Shown here one piece after another: positions 39,241-45,889 of a stretch of DNA of 64,000 nt (position 1 is the stretch's first letter; each line of letters begins with the position of its first letter). Under the pieces are notes generated by a model, which worked only from the letters and a program-made list of their open reading frames with translations, was not told the DNA's origin and made no database searches. Location of the stretch: NCBI GenBank assembly GCA_035577965.1, contig DATJYX010000081.1, positions 11,726 to 75,725 of the forward strand. Reading direction: 5' to 3'. Origin of the DNA: Vicinamibacteria bacterium (lineage in GTDB: Bacteria; Acidobacteriota; Vicinamibacteria; Fen-336). Made by a program: the position numbers and the translations under genes.

Positions 39241-39426
39241 TCAACAGCAGCGGTCCGGACGGCCCGAGTGGTAGCGGCGGCAGAGACCGTCCAGGTAGAA
39301 CTCCTCGCGGGTGAGGGGCTCTCCTCCTCCGCGCCGGGCGAGGTACGTCTCGTAGGCGGCGTCCCCGCTCCACTCGCGGACCCTCCACCAGAGGATGCGC
39401 AGGGCGGCCCGCAGGCGGGCCCTCAC
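39241..39426 (-). CDS. YbdD/YjiX-family small protein (CstA-associated)
   Basis: GD.AYE.YL...P.TREEFY...RCC terminus; GTGA overlap with the cstA stop. Confidence 0.8.
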   Translation of the reverse strand: MRARLRAALRILWWRVREWSGDAAYETYLARRGGGEPLTREEFYLDGLCRRYHSGRPDRCC

Positions 39427-41483
39427 GACGACGAGCCCTCCGCCCACCGCGTCCTCACGTACGGGCTCTCCGTCGACGCTGCCGCCCTCCGCCCGGCGAG
39501 TATGCCGTGCCACTCGGTGGCTGCCTCCGCGAGCAGGGCGAGGATCAGCAGGGCGAAGAAGGCGGTGACGGCGGCGTCCAGCCGGGCGTTGAAGACGACC
39601 CGCCGGGCCTCCGCCGCCTTCGCCTCCGGCATCTCCGGGATCTGCCGCTCCAGGGCCGAGGCCTGGGCCAGGAACCCGATGCGCGGGCTCTCGTGGAGCA
39701 CCTTCTGCCAGCTTCCGGCGAGCGTCACCGTGACGAGCCACGCCATCGGCAAGAGCGTCACCCACAGGTAGCGCCGCTTGCCCATCTTGATGAGGATGGT
39801 CGTCGCCACGACCAGCGCCACCGAGGCCAGGATCTGGTTGGCGATCCCGAAGAGGGGCCAGAGCGAGTTGATGCCGCCGAGGGGATCGAGGACGCCCTGG
39901 TAGAGGAAGTAGCCCCAGGCGCCCACGATGATGGCGCTCGTCACCAGGGTGCCCGCCCAGCCGGGGCGCGCGATCCCCGGGAGCGCCCGGCCCAGGAGCT
40001 CCTGCACCATGAAGCGGCCCACCCTCGTGCCGGCGTCGAGGACGGTGAGGATGAAGAGGGCCTCGAACATGATGGCGAAGTGGTACCAGATCCCGAGCAG
40101 GCTCTCGCCTCCGATCGTGCCGCTGAAGATGTGGGCCATCCCCACCGCGAGCGACGGCGCGCCGCCGGTGCGGTTCAGGAGGGTCTCCTCGCCGACCCGG
40201 CGCGCGAGCTCGTGCATCGCCCCCGCGTCGAGGGGGAAGCCCCAGGCCGAGATCGTCGCCGCCGCGCGCTCCGCCCCCGCGCCCACGATGCCGGCCGGGC
40301 TATTGATCGCGAAGTAGACCCCGGGCTCGAGGGCGCAGGCGGCCACCATCGCCATGACGCCGACGAAGGACTCCATGAGCATCGAGCCGTAGCCCACGAG
40401 CCGCGCGTCGCTCTCGCGCGTGAGCAGCTTGGGGGTCGTGCCCGAGGCGATGAGGGCGTGGAAGCCGGAGACCGCCCCGCAGGCGATGGTGATGAAGCAG
40501 AAGGGGAAGACCCCGCCCGCGAACACGGGGCCCGTCCCGTCGACGAAGCGGGTGAGGGCCGGCATCTGGATCGTCGGGCGGACGAGAACGATGCCCGCCG
40601 CGAGGGCGAGGACGACGCCGACCTTGATGAAGGCCGACAGGTAGTCGCGCGGCGCGAGGAGGAGCCACACCGGCAGCGCCGAGGCCGCGAAGCCATAAAC
40701 GATCACCGCCACCGCGAGGGCGGGCCCGGTGAGGGTGAAGACCCGGGCCCACTCGGGGGAATGCGCGACCCACTGGCCGGCGACCACGGCGAGGAGGATC
40801 AGGAGGAACCCGAGGGCCGAGGCTTCGATGACGCGCCCCGGGCGGAAGTAGCGCATGTAGAGGCCCATCACTATCGCGATCGGGACGGTCGCGGCCAGGG
40901 TGGAGGCGGCCCAGGGGGACTGCTTGAGCGCGTTGACGACCACGAGGGCCACCACCGCGAGCAGGATGACCATGATGGCGAGGACCGAGACCATGGCCAG
41001 GAGGCCGGCCCGGCGGCCCACCTCGTCGCGTGCCATCTGGCCCAGGGAGCGGCCGTCGCGGCGGAGCGAGAAGAAGAGGACCACGAAGTCCTGGACGCAG
41101 CCCCCCAGGACGGCGCCGGCCACGAGCCAGAGCGTCCCCGGCAGGTAGCCGAACTGCGCGGCGAGGGTCGGGCCGACGAGCGGACCGGGGCCGGCGATGG
41201 CGGCGAAGTGGTGGCCGAGCACCACCCACCGGTTCGTGGGCACGAAGTCGCGGCCGTCGTCGAGCCGCTCCGCCGGTGTCGCCCGCGTCGGGTCGAGCGA
41301 GAGGACGCGGGCCGCGAGGAAGGCCGAGTAGAACCGGTAGGCGACAAGGTAGGTGCAGCCGGCGCCGACCACGAAGAAGATCCCGTTCACGGGCTCGCCG
41401 CGGCGGAGCGCGATCGCGCCCAGGGCGCCCGCCCCGAGGCACGCCACGGCGAGCCAGGCGAGCGACGACACGAGCCTTCGCAT
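39423..41483 (-). CDS. cstA: Carbon starvation protein A (CstA/BtsT) peptide/pyruvate transporter
   Basis: GHHFAAIAGPGPLVGP, LPVWLLLAPRDYLS, FITIACGAVSGFH, LWPLFGIANQ; TATACT -10 at 41520-41515. Confidence 0.95.
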   Translation of the reverse strand: MRRLVSSLAWLAVACLGAGALGAIALRRGEPVNGIFFVVGAGCTYLVAYRFYSAFLAARVLSLDPTRATPAERLDDGRDFVPTNRWVVLGHHFAAIAGPGPLVGPTLAAQFGYLPGTLWLVAGAVLGGCVQDFVVLFFSLRRDGRSLGQMARDEVGRRAGLLAMVSVLAIMVILLAVVALVVVNALKQSPWAASTLAATVPIAIVMGLYMRYFRPGRVIEASALGFLLILLAVVAGQWVAHSPEWARVFTLTGPALAVAVIVYGFAASALPVWLLLAPRDYLSAFIKVGVVLALAAGIVLVRPTIQMPALTRFVDGTGPVFAGGVFPFCFITIACGAVSGFHALIASGTTPKLLTRESDARLVGYGSMLMESFVGVMAMVAACALEPGVYFAINSPAGIVGAGAERAAATISAWGFPLDAGAMHELARRVGEETLLNRTGGAPSLAVGMAHIFSGTIGGESLLGIWYHFAIMFEALFILTVLDAGTRVGRFMVQELLGRALPGIARPGWAGTLVTSAIIVGAWGYFLYQGVLDPLGGINSLWPLFGIANQILASVALVVATTILIKMGKRRYLWVTLLPMAWLVTVTLAGSWQKVLHESPRIGFLAQASALERQIPEMPEAKAAEARRVVFNARLDAAVTAFFALLILALLAEAATEWHGILAGRRAAASTESPYVRTRWAEGSSS

Positions 41484-41628
41484 CGGGCCGCTGATCCTCC
41501 CAGGAAAGTGCGTGAGTATAGCGTGGAGGAGCAGAGGCGGGCCGGGGACGACGAGGGGACGAAGGACGCGATCGGGGCGCCCTGTCCCGAGGCCCCCGAG
41601 ACGCCCGGGGGCCTCGGGATGGCGGGGC

Positions 41629-42597
41629 TCAGCGATTGTCGACCACGATCTTGGTGGCCAGCACGTATCCTTCCGGCTTGCTCCAGCCGCCGACCGCGGC
41701 CACGTCGCCGGCCACGATGGCGTAGGGGTCGAGGGCGCTGCCGTCGGACCACTTGAAGACGGTCGATCCGTTGGTCTCGACGTCGCGCCCGGCGACCGTC
41801 AGCCTGAGGTCGCACGAGCGGTGGACGCCCGCCTCGTCGAGGGCCGCGACGCCTCCGCCAGCGCCGAGCGAGGCCACGCTCTGCACCACACCCTTGAAGG
41901 AGACCCACGTGCCGCCGCTGCCGCCCGGGCCGGTGGTGAGGGCGGCGATCTCCTCCGCCACGACGACACCGTCCCCGCGCAGGGTGCCCCAGACCTTGAC
42001 CTTCTCGCCGACCTGGAGGTCGGAGAGCTGGATGCGCCGGTCGCCGCGCCACACCTTCTGGACCTGGCTCGCGTCCACCGGCCTCCCGGCCACGACGAGC
42101 TGCGTGCCCGCCATCTGATCGAGCGTGCCCGAGAAGAACGTGTCGGCCGTGGGGGCGCAGGTCGGCGGAGTCGTGAGCTGGGCGGCGCCACCGGAGATCC
42201 GGACCTCGACCGAGGTGACCTGCCGGTCGACGAGCCCGGTCACCTGGACCTGCGCGCTCACGCCCGGCCCCTCGACGCGCAAGCCGACGCTGCCCGCGGG
42301 GACGCCGGACAACGTGAAGCGGCCGTCCTCGTCGACCGCTGCCGCGAGCGAGGTGCCGGCGATGCTCACGCTCCAGCCGGTGTCGCCGGCGAGGGCGTGC
42401 ACGGGAGCGCCGACCGAGGTGCCGGTGCCGGCGAGGCCGGTCCCGAGGATCGTGCCCTGGAGGACGGCCGCGCCACTCGTGGCCGCGGGGGCGGCCCGGT
42501 CCGGGCCGGTGGCGGCCGAGGATCCGCCGCAGCCGGCCGCGCAGAGAGCGGCGGCGAGCCCGGCCAGGGACGAACGGAGCGACAGACGACGATGCAT
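41629..42597 (-). CDS. DUF5666-domain lipoprotein
   Basis: Lipobox AAGC; carboxypeptidase-regulatory-like Ig segment (DEDGRFTLSGVPAG); two OB-like repeats (LSDLQVGEKVKVWG...VVAEEI; IVAGDVAAVGG...VLATKI). Confidence 0.75.
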   Translation of the reverse strand: MHRRLSLRSSLAGLAAALCAAGCGGSSAATGPDRAAPAATSGAAVLQGTILGTGLAGTGTSVGAPVHALAGDTGWSVSIAGTSLAAAVDEDGRFTLSGVPAGSVGLRVEGPGVSAQVQVTGLVDRQVTSVEVRISGGAAQLTTPPTCAPTADTFFSGTLDQMAGTQLVVAGRPVDASQVQKVWRGDRRIQLSDLQVGEKVKVWGTLRGDGVVVAEEIAALTTGPGGSGGTWVSFKGVVQSVASLGAGGGVAALDEAGVHRSCDLRLTVAGRDVETNGSTVFKWSDGSALDPYAIVAGDVAAVGGWSKPEGYVLATKIVVDNR

Positions 42598-42612
42598 GAC
42601 ATGGCCTCCTTT

Positions 42613-42701
42613 CTCCTGGCGGCTCGGCTGACCCCGGAGGGAGGGTGGGGGTCCCGTTGCTCTGCGTCCCCGGGTTGCCCCGGGTTTGCTCTGAGCAGGA
42701 G
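42613..42701 (-). ncRNA. Cyclic dinucleotide riboswitch, GEMM-I class (A at Vc2 position 20, C at position 92)
   Basis: Reverse strand: CUCCUG-CUCAG-A-GC-AAA-CC-CGGG-GCAA-CCCG-GG-GAC-GC-AGAGC-AACGG-GACCCC-loop-GGGGUC-AG-CCG-AGCCG-C-CAGGAG, then SD AAAGGAGG. P1, P2 (GNRA loop) and P3 all pair. Confidence 0.88.
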
Positions 42702-43030
42702 GTCTCTCGTCCCCTCCGGCGTGGGGACCGGCGGGGATCCCGGGCCCTTGCCCGGGCGCCTGCACGCTATCCGCGCTCCCGGCGGTTCGGCGGTGAGGGA
42801 GGTCACCGATCCCGCCGCATGTGCGCGCACGCACGCTCCGCCGCCACGCAAGACGGATATCGCGGCGGGGCGAGGGTCGGCGGAGGGCGCCGCGGGAGCG
42901 TCGAGCCCGCCAGAGTGCTCCAGAGCACCACCCCGACCAGGGAGAACGGGACGGCGAAGGTCGTGACATCCCTGCCGTCGGAGGCCGGCCCCGATGCAGC
43001 GGGTCGCGAATCCGGCTAGACTCCGCCTCG

Positions 43031-45889
43031 GTGCTCAGAGTCCTCGTCGCCGGCCCGGAATCCCTGTCCGGGGTGCTCGGCCCCACCATCCTCGGACGTC
43101 CGGACATCGATCGGTTCCACGCGCCCACGTCCGAGGAAGCGCTCGCCGCGGCCGGGCGGGTCCTCCCGAACATGGTCGTGATCGACCTGCCGCGCGCGGA
43201 GGCGGTCGTGCTCGCCGAGCGGCTGCGCCGGAACCCGGCGACCCGGCCCACCGCCATCGTCTGGCTCGACCGCGAGGGGGTGCCCGACGCCGGCGCCGAG
43301 CTCACCGACGCCGGGGTGAACGCCGTCATCCCGCTGCCGGTGGATCCCTTCCTGTGGGACCGTCGGCTCGAAGAGCTCCTGAGCGTCCCCGCCCGCCGCA
43401 ACCGTCGCTTCCCGGCGAAGCTGCGCGACTGGTCGCGCTTCGTGAGCGGGGCCGACGAGGAGGAGGGCTCGGTCGTCAACATCGGGGCCCGGGGCGTGCT
43501 CCTCGAGAGCCCGCGCGAGCTCGCGCTCGGCACCAAGGTGGGGCTCACCCTCGAGCTGCCGGGCCAGTCCACGCCGGCCGCCGTGGTGGGCCAGGTGGTG
43601 CGGCTGGCCGGGGAGGAGAAGGGTCTCTTCCGCGTGGGGATCGAGTTCCTCGTCTACCGCGGCGACGCCCGCGAGCGCATCACCGCCTTCGTCGAGTCGG
43701 AGCCCCAGCCCGCCGACCGCCCGGGCGCGCCCGCCGTGCCGCTCCCCCTCACCGTCCGCCCCTTCCAGGAGGCGCGGGAGTGGGAGGAGGAGCTGCGGGC
43801 GAGCGAGATCAGGAAGGCGCTCATCCTGGACTCCGCCCTCGACTGCATCCTCACCGCCGACCACGAGGGCCGGGTCATCGAGTTCAACGCCTCGGCCCGA
43901 AGGCTCTTCGGCTACACGCGCTCCGAGATCCTGGGCCGCGACGTGGCCGACACCATCGTCCCCCCCGCGCTGCGGGACGAGCTGCGGCGCCAGCTGCGCG
44001 ACTTCGTGCGGACGGGCGACAGCCCCGACCTCGGCCGCCAGCGCGAGACGGCCCTCATGCGCGCCGACGGCTCGCTCGTGCCGGTGGAGGTCGTCGTCGT
44101 GCCGGCATACGTGAAGGGGCGGGTCATCCTGACCGCGTACATCCGTGACCTCACCGAGGCGCGGCGCCGCGAGCGCCTGACCGCCGCCCGCCAGCGCGCC
44201 ACCCATGCCCTCACCGCCTCGCTGTCGCTCGCCGAGGCCGTCCCGGCGGTTCTCGACACCCTCGTCCAGGGCCTCGGCGGCACGGAGGCGCGGCTGTGGG
44301 TGGCGGACGGCGACCCGCCGGCGCCGACGCTCGCCGGAACGACCGGCGAGCCGGAGGCAGCCCTGCCCCCGCCGCCCGACGACTCTCTCGCCCGCCGGAC
44401 CCTCGAGGAGGGCGCCGCGGTGTGGTCGGGCCCGGGCAAGGGCGGAGTGTCGGTCGCCGTGCCGGTGCGCGCCGGGGGCCAGGTCATGGGCGTCCTCGAG
44501 ATGCACAGCGACGTCGCGCGCTCGCGCGAAGCCGACTGGCTGCCCGCCCTCGCCGACACGGGGAGCCTCCTCGCCCTCTTCCTCAAGCGGCAGCGGGCGG
44601 AGGCGGACCTGCAGCGGTTCGCCCGCTACGACAGCCTCACCGGCCTCCCCAACCGCTCGTTCTTCCTCGACACCCTCGAGCGAACGCTGTCCCGGGCCAG
44701 CCGGCAGCGCACGCGCAGCGCCCTGGTGTTCGTCGACCTCGACGGCTTCAAGGCCGTGAACGACGGCCTCGGCCACGCAGCCGGGGACACGGTGCTGCAG
44801 ACGATGGCGGAGAGGCTGCGGTCGGGGACGCGCAGCTCCGACCTCGTGGCCCGCATCGGCGGCGACGAGTTCACCGTCCTCGTGCAGAACCTCGCCCGGC
44901 CCGACGACGCCGCCCTCGTGGCCAGAGGGCTCCTCGACCGCGTCGCCCGCCCGTGCCGGGCCGACGAGCACGAGCTGACCCTCAGCGCGAGCGCGGGCAT
45001 CAGCGTCTACCCCGACGACGGGACCGACGCCGCCACGCTCCTCCGCAACGCCGACCTCGCGATGTACCGGGCGAAGCAGGAGGGCAAGAACACCTACCGC
45101 TTCTTCACCGCCGAGATGAGCGAGCGCGCCCTCGAGCGGATGCTGCTCCTCGACAGCCTCCGGGTGGCCCTCGAGCGCGACCAGTTCGACATCGTCTACC
45201 TGCCCGTCGTCCACAAGGAACGCCCGCCCTCGCTCGAGGCCCTCCTCCGCTGGCGCCACCCCAAGCTGGGGCTGGTCTCCCCGCCCACCTTCATCGCCCA
45301 CGCCGAGGAGAGCGGGCTCATCCTGCCCATCGGGGCCGGGGTCCTGCGGGGGGCGACCCGCTTCGCGGCCGCCCTCGAGCGGAAGGACGTGCGGGTCGTC
45401 GTCAACCTCTCGGCGCGGCAGTTCCTCCAGCCAAACCTCGTCGAGGTCGTCCGCGACGCTCTGGCCGAGAGCGGACTCGATCCGTCGCGCCTGGAGCTCG
45501 ACCTCACCGAGCCCACCGTGATGACCGAGGGCGAGGAGACGACGGAGCAGCTCCGGCAGCTGCGGGAGCTCGGGGTGCAGCTCGCCCTCGACGATTTCGG
45601 CACCGGGTACTTTTCGATCGGCCGGATCCGGGACATGGGCTTCCGCCGCCTCAAGATCGACCGCTCGCTCGTGTCGGGGCTGCCCGACGACGCGCAGCGG
45701 GCCGCCCACGTCGTGGCCATCCTCGGCCTCGGCCGCAGCCTCGGCCTCGACGTGGTGGCGGAGGGCGTCGAGACGGAGGGCCAGCGCGCCTTCCTCGAGG
45801 CGAACGGCTGCACCGGCCTCCAGGGCTACCTGCTCAGCCCGCCCCTCGCGGCGGCGGACGTCCCGGCCTTCCTGGCCAGGATGCGCTGA
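43031..45889 (+). CDS. Diguanylate cyclase/phosphodiesterase: degenerate REC-PilZ-PAS-GAF-GGDEF-EAL
   Basis: PilZ RRNRR and NIGARG; PAS DCILTAD..G.VIEFN.SA; DLDGFKAVND.LGH.AGD; RSSD I-site; GGDEF; EAL, DDFGTG, AEGVE, QGY. Confidence 0.92.
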   Translation: MLRVLVAGPESLSGVLGPTILGRPDIDRFHAPTSEEALAAAGRVLPNMVVIDLPRAEAVVLAERLRRNPATRPTAIVWLDREGVPDAGAELTDAGVNAVIPLPVDPFLWDRRLEELLSVPARRNRRFPAKLRDWSRFVSGADEEEGSVVNIGARGVLLESPRELALGTKVGLTLELPGQSTPAAVVGQVVRLAGEEKGLFRVGIEFLVYRGDARERITAFVESEPQPADRPGAPAVPLPLTVRPFQEAREWEEELRASEIRKALILDSALDCILTADHEGRVIEFNASARRLFGYTRSEILGRDVADTIVPPALRDELRRQLRDFVRTGDSPDLGRQRETALMRADGSLVPVEVVVVPAYVKGRVILTAYIRDLTEARRRERLTAARQRATHALTASLSLAEAVPAVLDTLVQGLGGTEARLWVADGDPPAPTLAGTTGEPEAALPPPPDDSLARRTLEEGAAVWSGPGKGGVSVAVPVRAGGQVMGVLEMHSDVARSREADWLPALADTGSLLALFLKRQRAEADLQRFARYDSLTGLPNRSFFLDTLERTLSRASRQRTRSALVFVDLDGFKAVNDGLGHAAGDTVLQTMAERLRSGTRSSDLVARIGGDEFTVLVQNLARPDDAALVARGLLDRVARPCRADEHELTLSASAGISVYPDDGTDAATLLRNADLAMYRAKQEGKNTYRFFTAEMSERALERMLLLDSLRVALERDQFDIVYLPVVHKERPPSLEALLRWRHPKLGLVSPPTFIAHAEESGLILPIGAGVLRGATRFAAALERKDVRVVVNLSARQFLQPNLVEVVRDALAESGLDPSRLELDLTEPTVMTEGEETTEQLRQLRELGVQLALDDFGTGYFSIGRIRDMGFRRLKIDRSLVSGLPDDAQRAAHVVAILGLGRSLGLDVVAEGVETEGQRAFLEANGCTGLQGYLLSPPLAAADVPAFLARMR

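Follow-up and report, generated by a model that had tools for sequence, protein, structure and literature searches.

To our knowledge, Geobacter and its relatives are the only bacteria in which riboswitch-mediated signaling by 3',3'-cGAMP has been demonstrated. The Vc2 aptamer of Vibrio cholerae (RF01051; structures of Vc2 and its G20A mutant, PDB 3MUM and 4YB1) is a three-helix junction in which A48 and U90 form a Hoogsteen pair (PMC11705072), A49 makes an A-minor contact on G45-C22, and A48 is counted among the ligand-recognition nucleotides (both PMC3764141). The Vc2 G20A mutant binds c-di-GMP at 53 nM and cGAMP at 120 nM, which is about equal, and for Cbe 1-2, a natural A20 aptamer, the values are 30 nM for c-di-GMP and 463 nM for cGAMP (PMC6140456). 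[quoted passage not shown]

The locus described here lies in a stretch of 64,000 nucleotides, all of which was analyzed and which we refer to as the window. A sequence-only reading had proposed that it holds a GEMM-I aptamer in the Vc2 register, in a probable Acidobacteriota host. The host does belong to this phylum (class Vicinamibacteria), and a covariance-model search of the whole window (cmscan, Rfam 15) returned a single over-threshold match, to the RF01051 c-di-GMP-I model, at 42700 to 42615 on the minus strand (model positions 1-87, E 1.3e-05), with a score of 45.1 bits against a gathering score of 35 bits. The same reading had recommended looking for further copies in the genome; the 5.9-Mb, 91%-complete assembly contains only this one RF01051 match (E 3e-7), and the model had no match in 14 control genomes (0/14). 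The proposed P1, P2, P3, loop, and junction were all recovered in the Rfam alignment or the sequence, as were A20, C92, and two departures from Vc2, namely, a G at position 48 and a deletion of the receptor bulge at model positions 51-54. The elements of the aptamer are as follows:

42613 to 42701, minus strand: GEMM-I aptamer including the full P1, defined by the RF01051 match (45.1 bits) and covariation
42701 to 42696, minus strand: 5' strand of P1, CUCCUG, pairing with CAGGAG
42690, minus strand: A20, equivalent to G20 of Vc2 (model position 11, Rfam alignment)
42689 to 42664, minus strand: P2, GC-AAA-CCCGGG-[GCAA]-CCCGGG-GAC-GC, with its GCAA loop at 42678 to 42675
42663, 42662, and 42661, minus strand: A47, G48, and A49 of J2/3 (Rfam alignment)
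42660 to 42622, minus strand: P3, CGG/CCG plus GACCCC/GGGGUC, with a 12-nt C/U-rich loop at 42647 to 42636
42621, 42620, and 42619, minus strand: C90, G91, and C92, the last being the first C of 'gCC' in the Rfam alignment
42618 to 42613, minus strand: 3' strand of P1, CAGGAG, pairing with CUCCUG

The Vc2 numbering used throughout was checked against the published pairs G14-C93, G21-C46, C22-G45, A48-U90, G50-U89, and C51-G88 (PMC11705072) and was also fixed by the A49 contact on G45-C22 (PMC3764141); the residue numbers A14 and A41 of Gs1761 are consistent with the same register. The three-way-junction fold is supported by covariation across 23 distinct sequences of the subfamily described below, in which 96% of cells were paired and compensatory changes occurred at 14 of the 23 pairs. 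None of 500 shuffles reached the observed values, and slid controls gave 31-46%. P1 itself covaries and is found in four versions (CUCCUG/CAGGAG, CCUUUG/CAAAGG, GUGCUG/CAGCAC, and CUCCCG/CGGGAG). The P3 receptor bulge 'CUAA' that is deleted in the window copy is retained in the subfamily members of genomes G051 and G192. A GCUC/GAGC helix joining J1/2 to J2/3, also predicted by RNAfold, was rejected as a required element, given that G157, L018, and L006-type members do not keep it and that no compensatory change was seen in it. Judged by model score and covariation, the window RNA is a genuine cyclic-dinucleotide riboswitch of the c-di-GMP-I (GEMM-I) family.

Two of the four pocket nucleotides G20, A47, A48, and C92 are changed in the window RNA (G20 to A and A48 to G), and A47 and C92 are retained. 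The RNA shares with Vc2 the three-helix junction, a GNRA-type loop (GCAA) capping P2, G14-C93, a C-x-C-A-G J1/2, G21-C46, C22-G45, A47, A49, and C92, and it shares with the Vc2 G20A mutant the A at position 20. It differs from Vc2 in carrying A16U, in having G48 and C90 in place of the A48-U90 Hoogsteen pair, in lacking the P3 receptor bulge and ending P3 in the 12-nt C/U-rich loop, and in an expression platform predicted to act on translation via an anti-Shine-Dalgarno (anti-SD) element. If J1/2 of Vc2 is C-A-C-A-G, as we take it to be from the Vc2 sequence and its consistency with the published pairs, then J1/2 and the lower P2 of the window RNA are presumably those of Vc2 except for A16U and G20A. 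The Geobacter GEMM-Ib riboswitches (pilM of G. metallireducens, Gs1761/pgcA, and Gm0970) resemble the window RNA in A20, C92, A47, fold, and ON logic, as well as in having a host that encodes a Ser348 (Hypr-type) GGDEF. Compared with pilM, the one member of that group taken for comparison, the lower P2 is G-C and C-G rather than C-G and U.G, J1/2 is CUCAG-A rather than ACAAU-A, and J2/3 is AGA with C90 rather than AAA with U90; pilM also acts via a terminator. The Geobacter enzyme is a Rec-GGDEF (GacA), whereas the window genome has a GAF-GGDEF, and cGAMP selectivity was measured in Geobacter, whereas the window RNA is known from its sequence. Cbe 1-2 of Clostridium beijerinckii is a natural A20/C92 aptamer outside Geobacter, likened to the window RNA by these two positions, and its measured preference is for c-di-GMP. 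By alignment, then, the closest characterized RNA is the bispecific Vc2 G20A, and the window RNA can best be viewed as a natural 'Vc2 G20A' that also carries A16U, G48, and C90. Given that A48 is among the ligand-recognition nucleotides, this analogy may fail, and the G48:C90 combination could matter.

We read positions 20, 48, 90, and 92 in 127 GEMM-I matches, these being the listed matches at or nearly at the cut-off from a survey of 401 Acidobacteriota genomes, 64 of which had RF01051 matches. G20 was found in 98 of the 127, with G20/A48/U90 in 41 and G20/A48/C90 in 21. The combination of the window RNA, A20/G48/C90/C92, accounted for 24 matches and A20/A48/U90/C92 for 5; the remainder had other combinations or were unparsable. 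The A20/G48/C90 group occurs across several families (f1, f3, f25, and f46), and the triad is invariant in the 23 distinct subfamily sequences, which come from several families. Among the 41 close genomes that make up the order, 15 had RF01051 matches, and every match of the window's own genus reads CUCAG-A-GCAAAC. A20 and G20 copies coexist in five genomes (for example, L006 with A20 and L017 with G20 in G028). On these alignments, the window RNA is a member of an Acidobacteriota subfamily defined by A20 together with G48 and C90, a pocket variant that is common in the phylum and distinct in sequence from the pilM cGAMP riboswitch. An invariant triad in a phylum whose GEMM-I RNAs mostly retain G20, together with the five mixed genomes, seems to reflect selection for another specificity rather than drift. 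A further pocket combination, with G20, G48, C90, and U92, was seen in a GEMM-I copy at G080:C94:93571-93650.

The genes and signals around the aptamer are as follows:

42595 to 42597, minus strand: start codon of the regulated gene, from which translation gives a lipoprotein signal peptide
41629 to 42597, minus strand: regulated gene, encoding a lipoprotein of 322 aa (lipobox AAGC) that combines a CarboxypepD_reg-like Ig domain with two beta-barrels of the DUF5666 type
41586 to 41618, minus strand: 12-bp GC hairpin, CCCGAGGCCCCC-N9-GGGGGCCUCGGG, directly after the stop codon, terminator-like but without a U tract
39423 to 41483, minus strand: cstA (pyruvate/peptide transporter family; Pfam CstA, E 1e-245), with synteny in at least 10 relatives
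43031 to 45889, plus strand: divergent neighbor, a REC-like/PilZ/PAS/GAF/GGDEF/EAL protein with canonical GHAAGD, GGDEF, and EAL motifs

The DUF5666 assignment of the lipoprotein comes from Pfam (E 5e-13), and its AlphaFold (AF2) model is all-beta with a pLDDT of 82. A fold search with this model matched only Ig-like X-modules and OB folds and pointed to no function, and among about 300 homologues none is named. The named relatives of the downstream protein come from Vicinamibacteria and Acidobacteriota MAGs, and the DNA runs containing this stretch are wetland metagenomes. At least 12 relatives have a lipoprotein orthologue preceded by the riboswitch (copies from the window's own genus). The divergent GGDEF-EAL gene, whose GGDEF domain matches PF00990 at C81:56346-56816, adjoins the riboswitch in at least 8 relatives, and the whole order, with this gene on one side and riboswitch, lipoprotein, and cstA running in the opposite direction, is kept in at least 8-10. 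A consensus scan found no U-tract terminator at the hairpin at 41586 to 41618. Upstream of cstA, a TATACT box and an SD can be read in the sequence, so that cstA probably has its own promoter box and ribosome-binding site; with the hairpin after the lipoprotein stop codon, this suggests that control by the switch is probably confined to the lipoprotein gene. The CstA proteins of relatives align only from residue 28 of the minus-strand open reading frame at 39423-41483, and the true cstA start may lie 81 nt downstream of the first ATG. In three further copies from the genus, the riboswitch subtype precedes a 111-117-aa secreted protein with the motif ITTTGT(L/V/I)VS...LVV(R/K)IDDH.H (L016, L019, and L020, at G011:C539, G014:C30, and G012:C12), which from its position may be a second regulon member. 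We found no RNA run of the organism itself; in the metatranscriptome run X9, a 400-nt contig is about 90% identical to the leader and gene start (window positions 42500-42743). The ends of two X9 contigs fall at 42698, close to where the aptamer begins; these sequences derive from relatives and are possibly DNA carry-over.

The genome encodes 25 GGDEF domains. According to published criteria, Hypr enzymes have Ser at GacA position 348 (PleD-D344), a GGDEF rather than GGEEF motif, and a residue other than Arg at the cross-dimer position 304 (PMC6456294). A search for such enzymes, recommended in the sequence-only reading, yielded two candidates with all three signatures: C45:9359-9829 (LFNSRY, GHLAGS, and GGDEF, with Ser at 304) and C110:48975-49442 (LHNFRY, GHLRGS, and GGDEF, with Phe at 304). 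The best PDB match of the C45 domain is the Hypr domain of GmGacA (6d9m), at 163 bits versus 111 for the next, and the full protein, a GAF-GGDEF rather than a Rec-GGDEF, shows 85-100% identity over 120 clusters. The CD-NTase route that had also been suggested was rejected, given that a search of the genome found no SMODS cyclase, which leaves the C45 and C110 GGDEFs as the only candidate cGAMP synthases found in it. The distribution of these enzymes does not follow that of the RNA. Ser348 GGDEFs are present in all 41 genomes of the order versus the riboswitch in 15, and they are present in 30 of 40 riboswitch-bearing Acidobacteriota, G20 or A20 alike, so that we found no association with A20 riboswitches in either set. 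In the subfamily genomes G157 and G192, position 348 is Gly, and in a third such genome, G051, Ser348 was absent from the four GGDEF domains read of eight matches. The closest homologues of the GacA-like enzyme in G192 and G157 (L130 at G192:C7:17362-17841 and L131 at G157:C1:98335-98814) are 53-56% identical to it and represent a GGDEF variant with Gly348 (GHLIGG and GHLVGG) and Asn at the cross-dimer site. The window's own genome holds two further GGDEFs, at G000:C58:100414-100890 and G000:C33:4300-4776, with Asn for Asp at the base-reading position (GHQEGN and GHLAGN) and GGEEF motifs. As far as enzyme sequences and their distribution indicate, Ser348 GGDEFs make cGAMP possible but do not tie it to the window RNA.

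We favor, at a probability of roughly 45%, a bispecific pocket for which c-di-GMP would be the main cellular input. The pocket (A20, A47, G48:C90, and C92, otherwise Vc2-like) should accept a 3',3'-dinucleotide with G as the beta base. Its main input would be c-di-GMP, for whose synthesis and breakdown the genome has about 20 canonical GGDEF or GGDEF-EAL proteins, the conserved neighbor among them, and a possible second input would be 3',3'-cGAMP from the two GacA-like Ser348 GGDEFs. Bispecificity is suggested by the affinities of Vc2 G20A and Cbe 1-2 and by the Vc2-like J1/2 and lower P2, and c-di-GMP as the input by the 25 GGDEF domains and the conserved synteny with the GGDEF-EAL gene. The sequence-only reading had instead taken A20 with C92 to mark a cGAMP sensor. 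A dedicated 3',3'-cGAMP riboswitch, fed by the two GAF-type Hypr GGDEFs and independent of the Geobacter GEMM-Ib lineage, is in our view a possible though less likely alternative. It would account for A20 and C92 both being present, for the invariance of A20, G48, and C90 over 24 matches in several families when G20 prevails in the survey, and for the coexistence of both pocket types in five genomes. The C45 and C110 enzymes add to its appeal, given their three Hypr signatures, GmGacA as the closest solved relative, the strong conservation of the C45 protein, and the lack of an SMODS match in the genome. However, A20 by itself yields a bispecific or even c-di-GMP-preferring RNA, as Vc2 G20A and Cbe 1-2 show, and the surrounding context (J1/2 CUCAG, G21-C46, and C22-G45) is that of Vc2. 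The lower P2, J2/3, and position 90 are unlike those of pilM, and changes to the lower P2 alter selectivity (PMC9262584). The Ser348 enzymes occur throughout the order and regardless of riboswitch type, some subfamily genomes have Gly348 or GGDEFs without Ser at this position, and the enzyme conserved next to the RNA is a canonical DGC-EAL. A20 is needed for reading cGAMP yet insufficient, and its value as a marker is not supported here.

We also considered an ordinary c-di-GMP switch in which A20 and G48 would only lower affinity to suit a higher cellular c-di-GMP level and cGAMP would have no role in vivo. The 15-fold better binding of c-di-GMP than cGAMP by Cbe 1-2, the richness of the genome in canonical GGDEF and EAL proteins, and the conserved PilZ-GGDEF-EAL neighbor are all in keeping with this view, as is Cabther_A1065, which is listed among the Hypr GGDEFs from other bacteria and makes more c-di-GMP (PMC6456294). 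Cabther_A1065 has Arg at the cross-dimer site, however, where C45 and C110 have Ser or Phe, and the strict invariance of the triad together with its coexistence with G20 copies argues for a distinct input, so we regard this alternative as unlikely. A broader proposal is that the A20 and G48:C90 RNAs are a GEMM-I specificity class born in Acidobacteriota, separately from Geobacter GEMM-Ib. Here A20 and the exchange of the A48-U90 Hoogsteen pair for a G-C pair would together confer real selectivity for 3',3'-cGAMP or a different mixed dinucleotide, and the synthases would be the near-universal GAF-type Ser348 GGDEFs of Vicinamibacteria; we consider this possible but less likely.

The sequence-only reading had further proposed that ligand binding turns on translation, with the SD abutting P1 and the 5' strand of P1 acting as an anti-SD. 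The two elements are as follows:

42697 to 42702, minus strand: anti-SD CCUCCU, the 5' strand of P1 shifted by one base, pairing with AGGAGG at 42610 to 42605
42605 to 42609, minus strand: SD GGAGG, 3 nt past P1 and 7 nt ahead of the in-frame ATG at 42597

Folding predictions agree with this proposal, given that in the minimum free energy structure of the 116-nt leader (-45.5 kcal/mol), CCUCCU at 42702-42697 pairs with AGGAGG at 42610-42605, which slips P1 by 8 nt and closes the SD. The ensemble with P1 proper lies 3.4-8.7 kcal/mol above the free ensemble, varying with the folded length, a predicted gap that is within reach of nanomolar ligand binding. Most P0001-type leaders in the genus keep GGAGGCC ahead of the start codon, and one has UGGAGUC. 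Of 12 related leaders, 10 gained SD accessibility when the aptamer was enforced (for example, from 0.00 to 0.79 and from 0.06 to 0.84). In long-form relatives, one hairpin consumes GCCGCC and the 3' strand of P1 and is followed by an SD-sequestering hairpin, GGCCUUC-UGGAA-GGAGGCC, and in the subfamily member at G051:C121, C92-C93 and the 3' strand of P1 make up the 5' arm of an intrinsic terminator. Such P1-competing terminators and SD-sequestering relays imply ON logic, and the short form in the window appears to have arisen by deletion, leaving the 5' strand of P1 itself to serve as the anti-SD. An out-of-frame ATG at 42600-42602 (minus strand), 2 nt past the SD and 5 nt before the true start, opens a 78-codon frame; it is not conserved (relative L013 reads AAG) and is probably incidental. 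The 12-nt P3 loop, CACCCUCCCUCC (42636-42647, minus strand), contains two CCUCC anti-SD words. Many relatives have CCCUC in their P3 loops, and some predicted folds show the P3 loop paired with the SD, so this loop may be a second sequestrator or make a tertiary contact.

Based on these predictions and on the ON-type platforms of relatives, the RNA is probably a translational ON switch for the surface lipoprotein. Without ligand, the CCUCCU of the P1 5' strand would slip by 8 nt and pair with AGGAGG, or alternatively the SD and the 3' strand of P1 would be paired elsewhere, and in both states the ribosome site would be closed. Ligand bound in the three-way junction would lock P1 as CUCCUG/CAGGAG and leave the SD single-stranded, turning on translation of the monocistronic DUF5666 lipoprotein gene. 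The opposite direction, in which a ligand-stabilized P1 would compact the leader and hinder 30S binding, draws on the SD beginning just 3 nt after P1 and on the window's own leader, for which the result in a longer context is ambiguous and accessibility falls slightly, from 0.27 to 0.18, with the aptamer enforced. That drop stems from a predicted hairpin between the SD and the coding region that is unrelated to the aptamer, most of the related leaders move the other way, and their P1-competing terminators or sequestrators follow ON logic. We therefore consider an OFF switch improbable and retain the translational ON switch as the working model.

In summary, A20 variants of GEMM-I are common, and the bare A20 call is ordinary and would not be surprising by itself; from the sequence comparisons, the co-change of G48:C90 and the near-universal GacA-like enzymes appear to be the noteworthy parts of this system. 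Acidobacteria are among the most abundant soil phyla. If they do hold an independent cGAMP-reading lineage, the known reach of this signal would widen, and A20 plus G48:C90 would represent a second structural route to selectivity. If the specificity class is real, it would amount to a second, soil-wide cGAMP regulon governing DUF5666 surface lipoproteins. Even if the pocket is bispecific, the subfamily would offer a natural test of the contribution of A48-U90 to ligand choice and would suggest that, among the surface proteins of the group, DUF5666 lipoproteins are the main ones under dinucleotide control.
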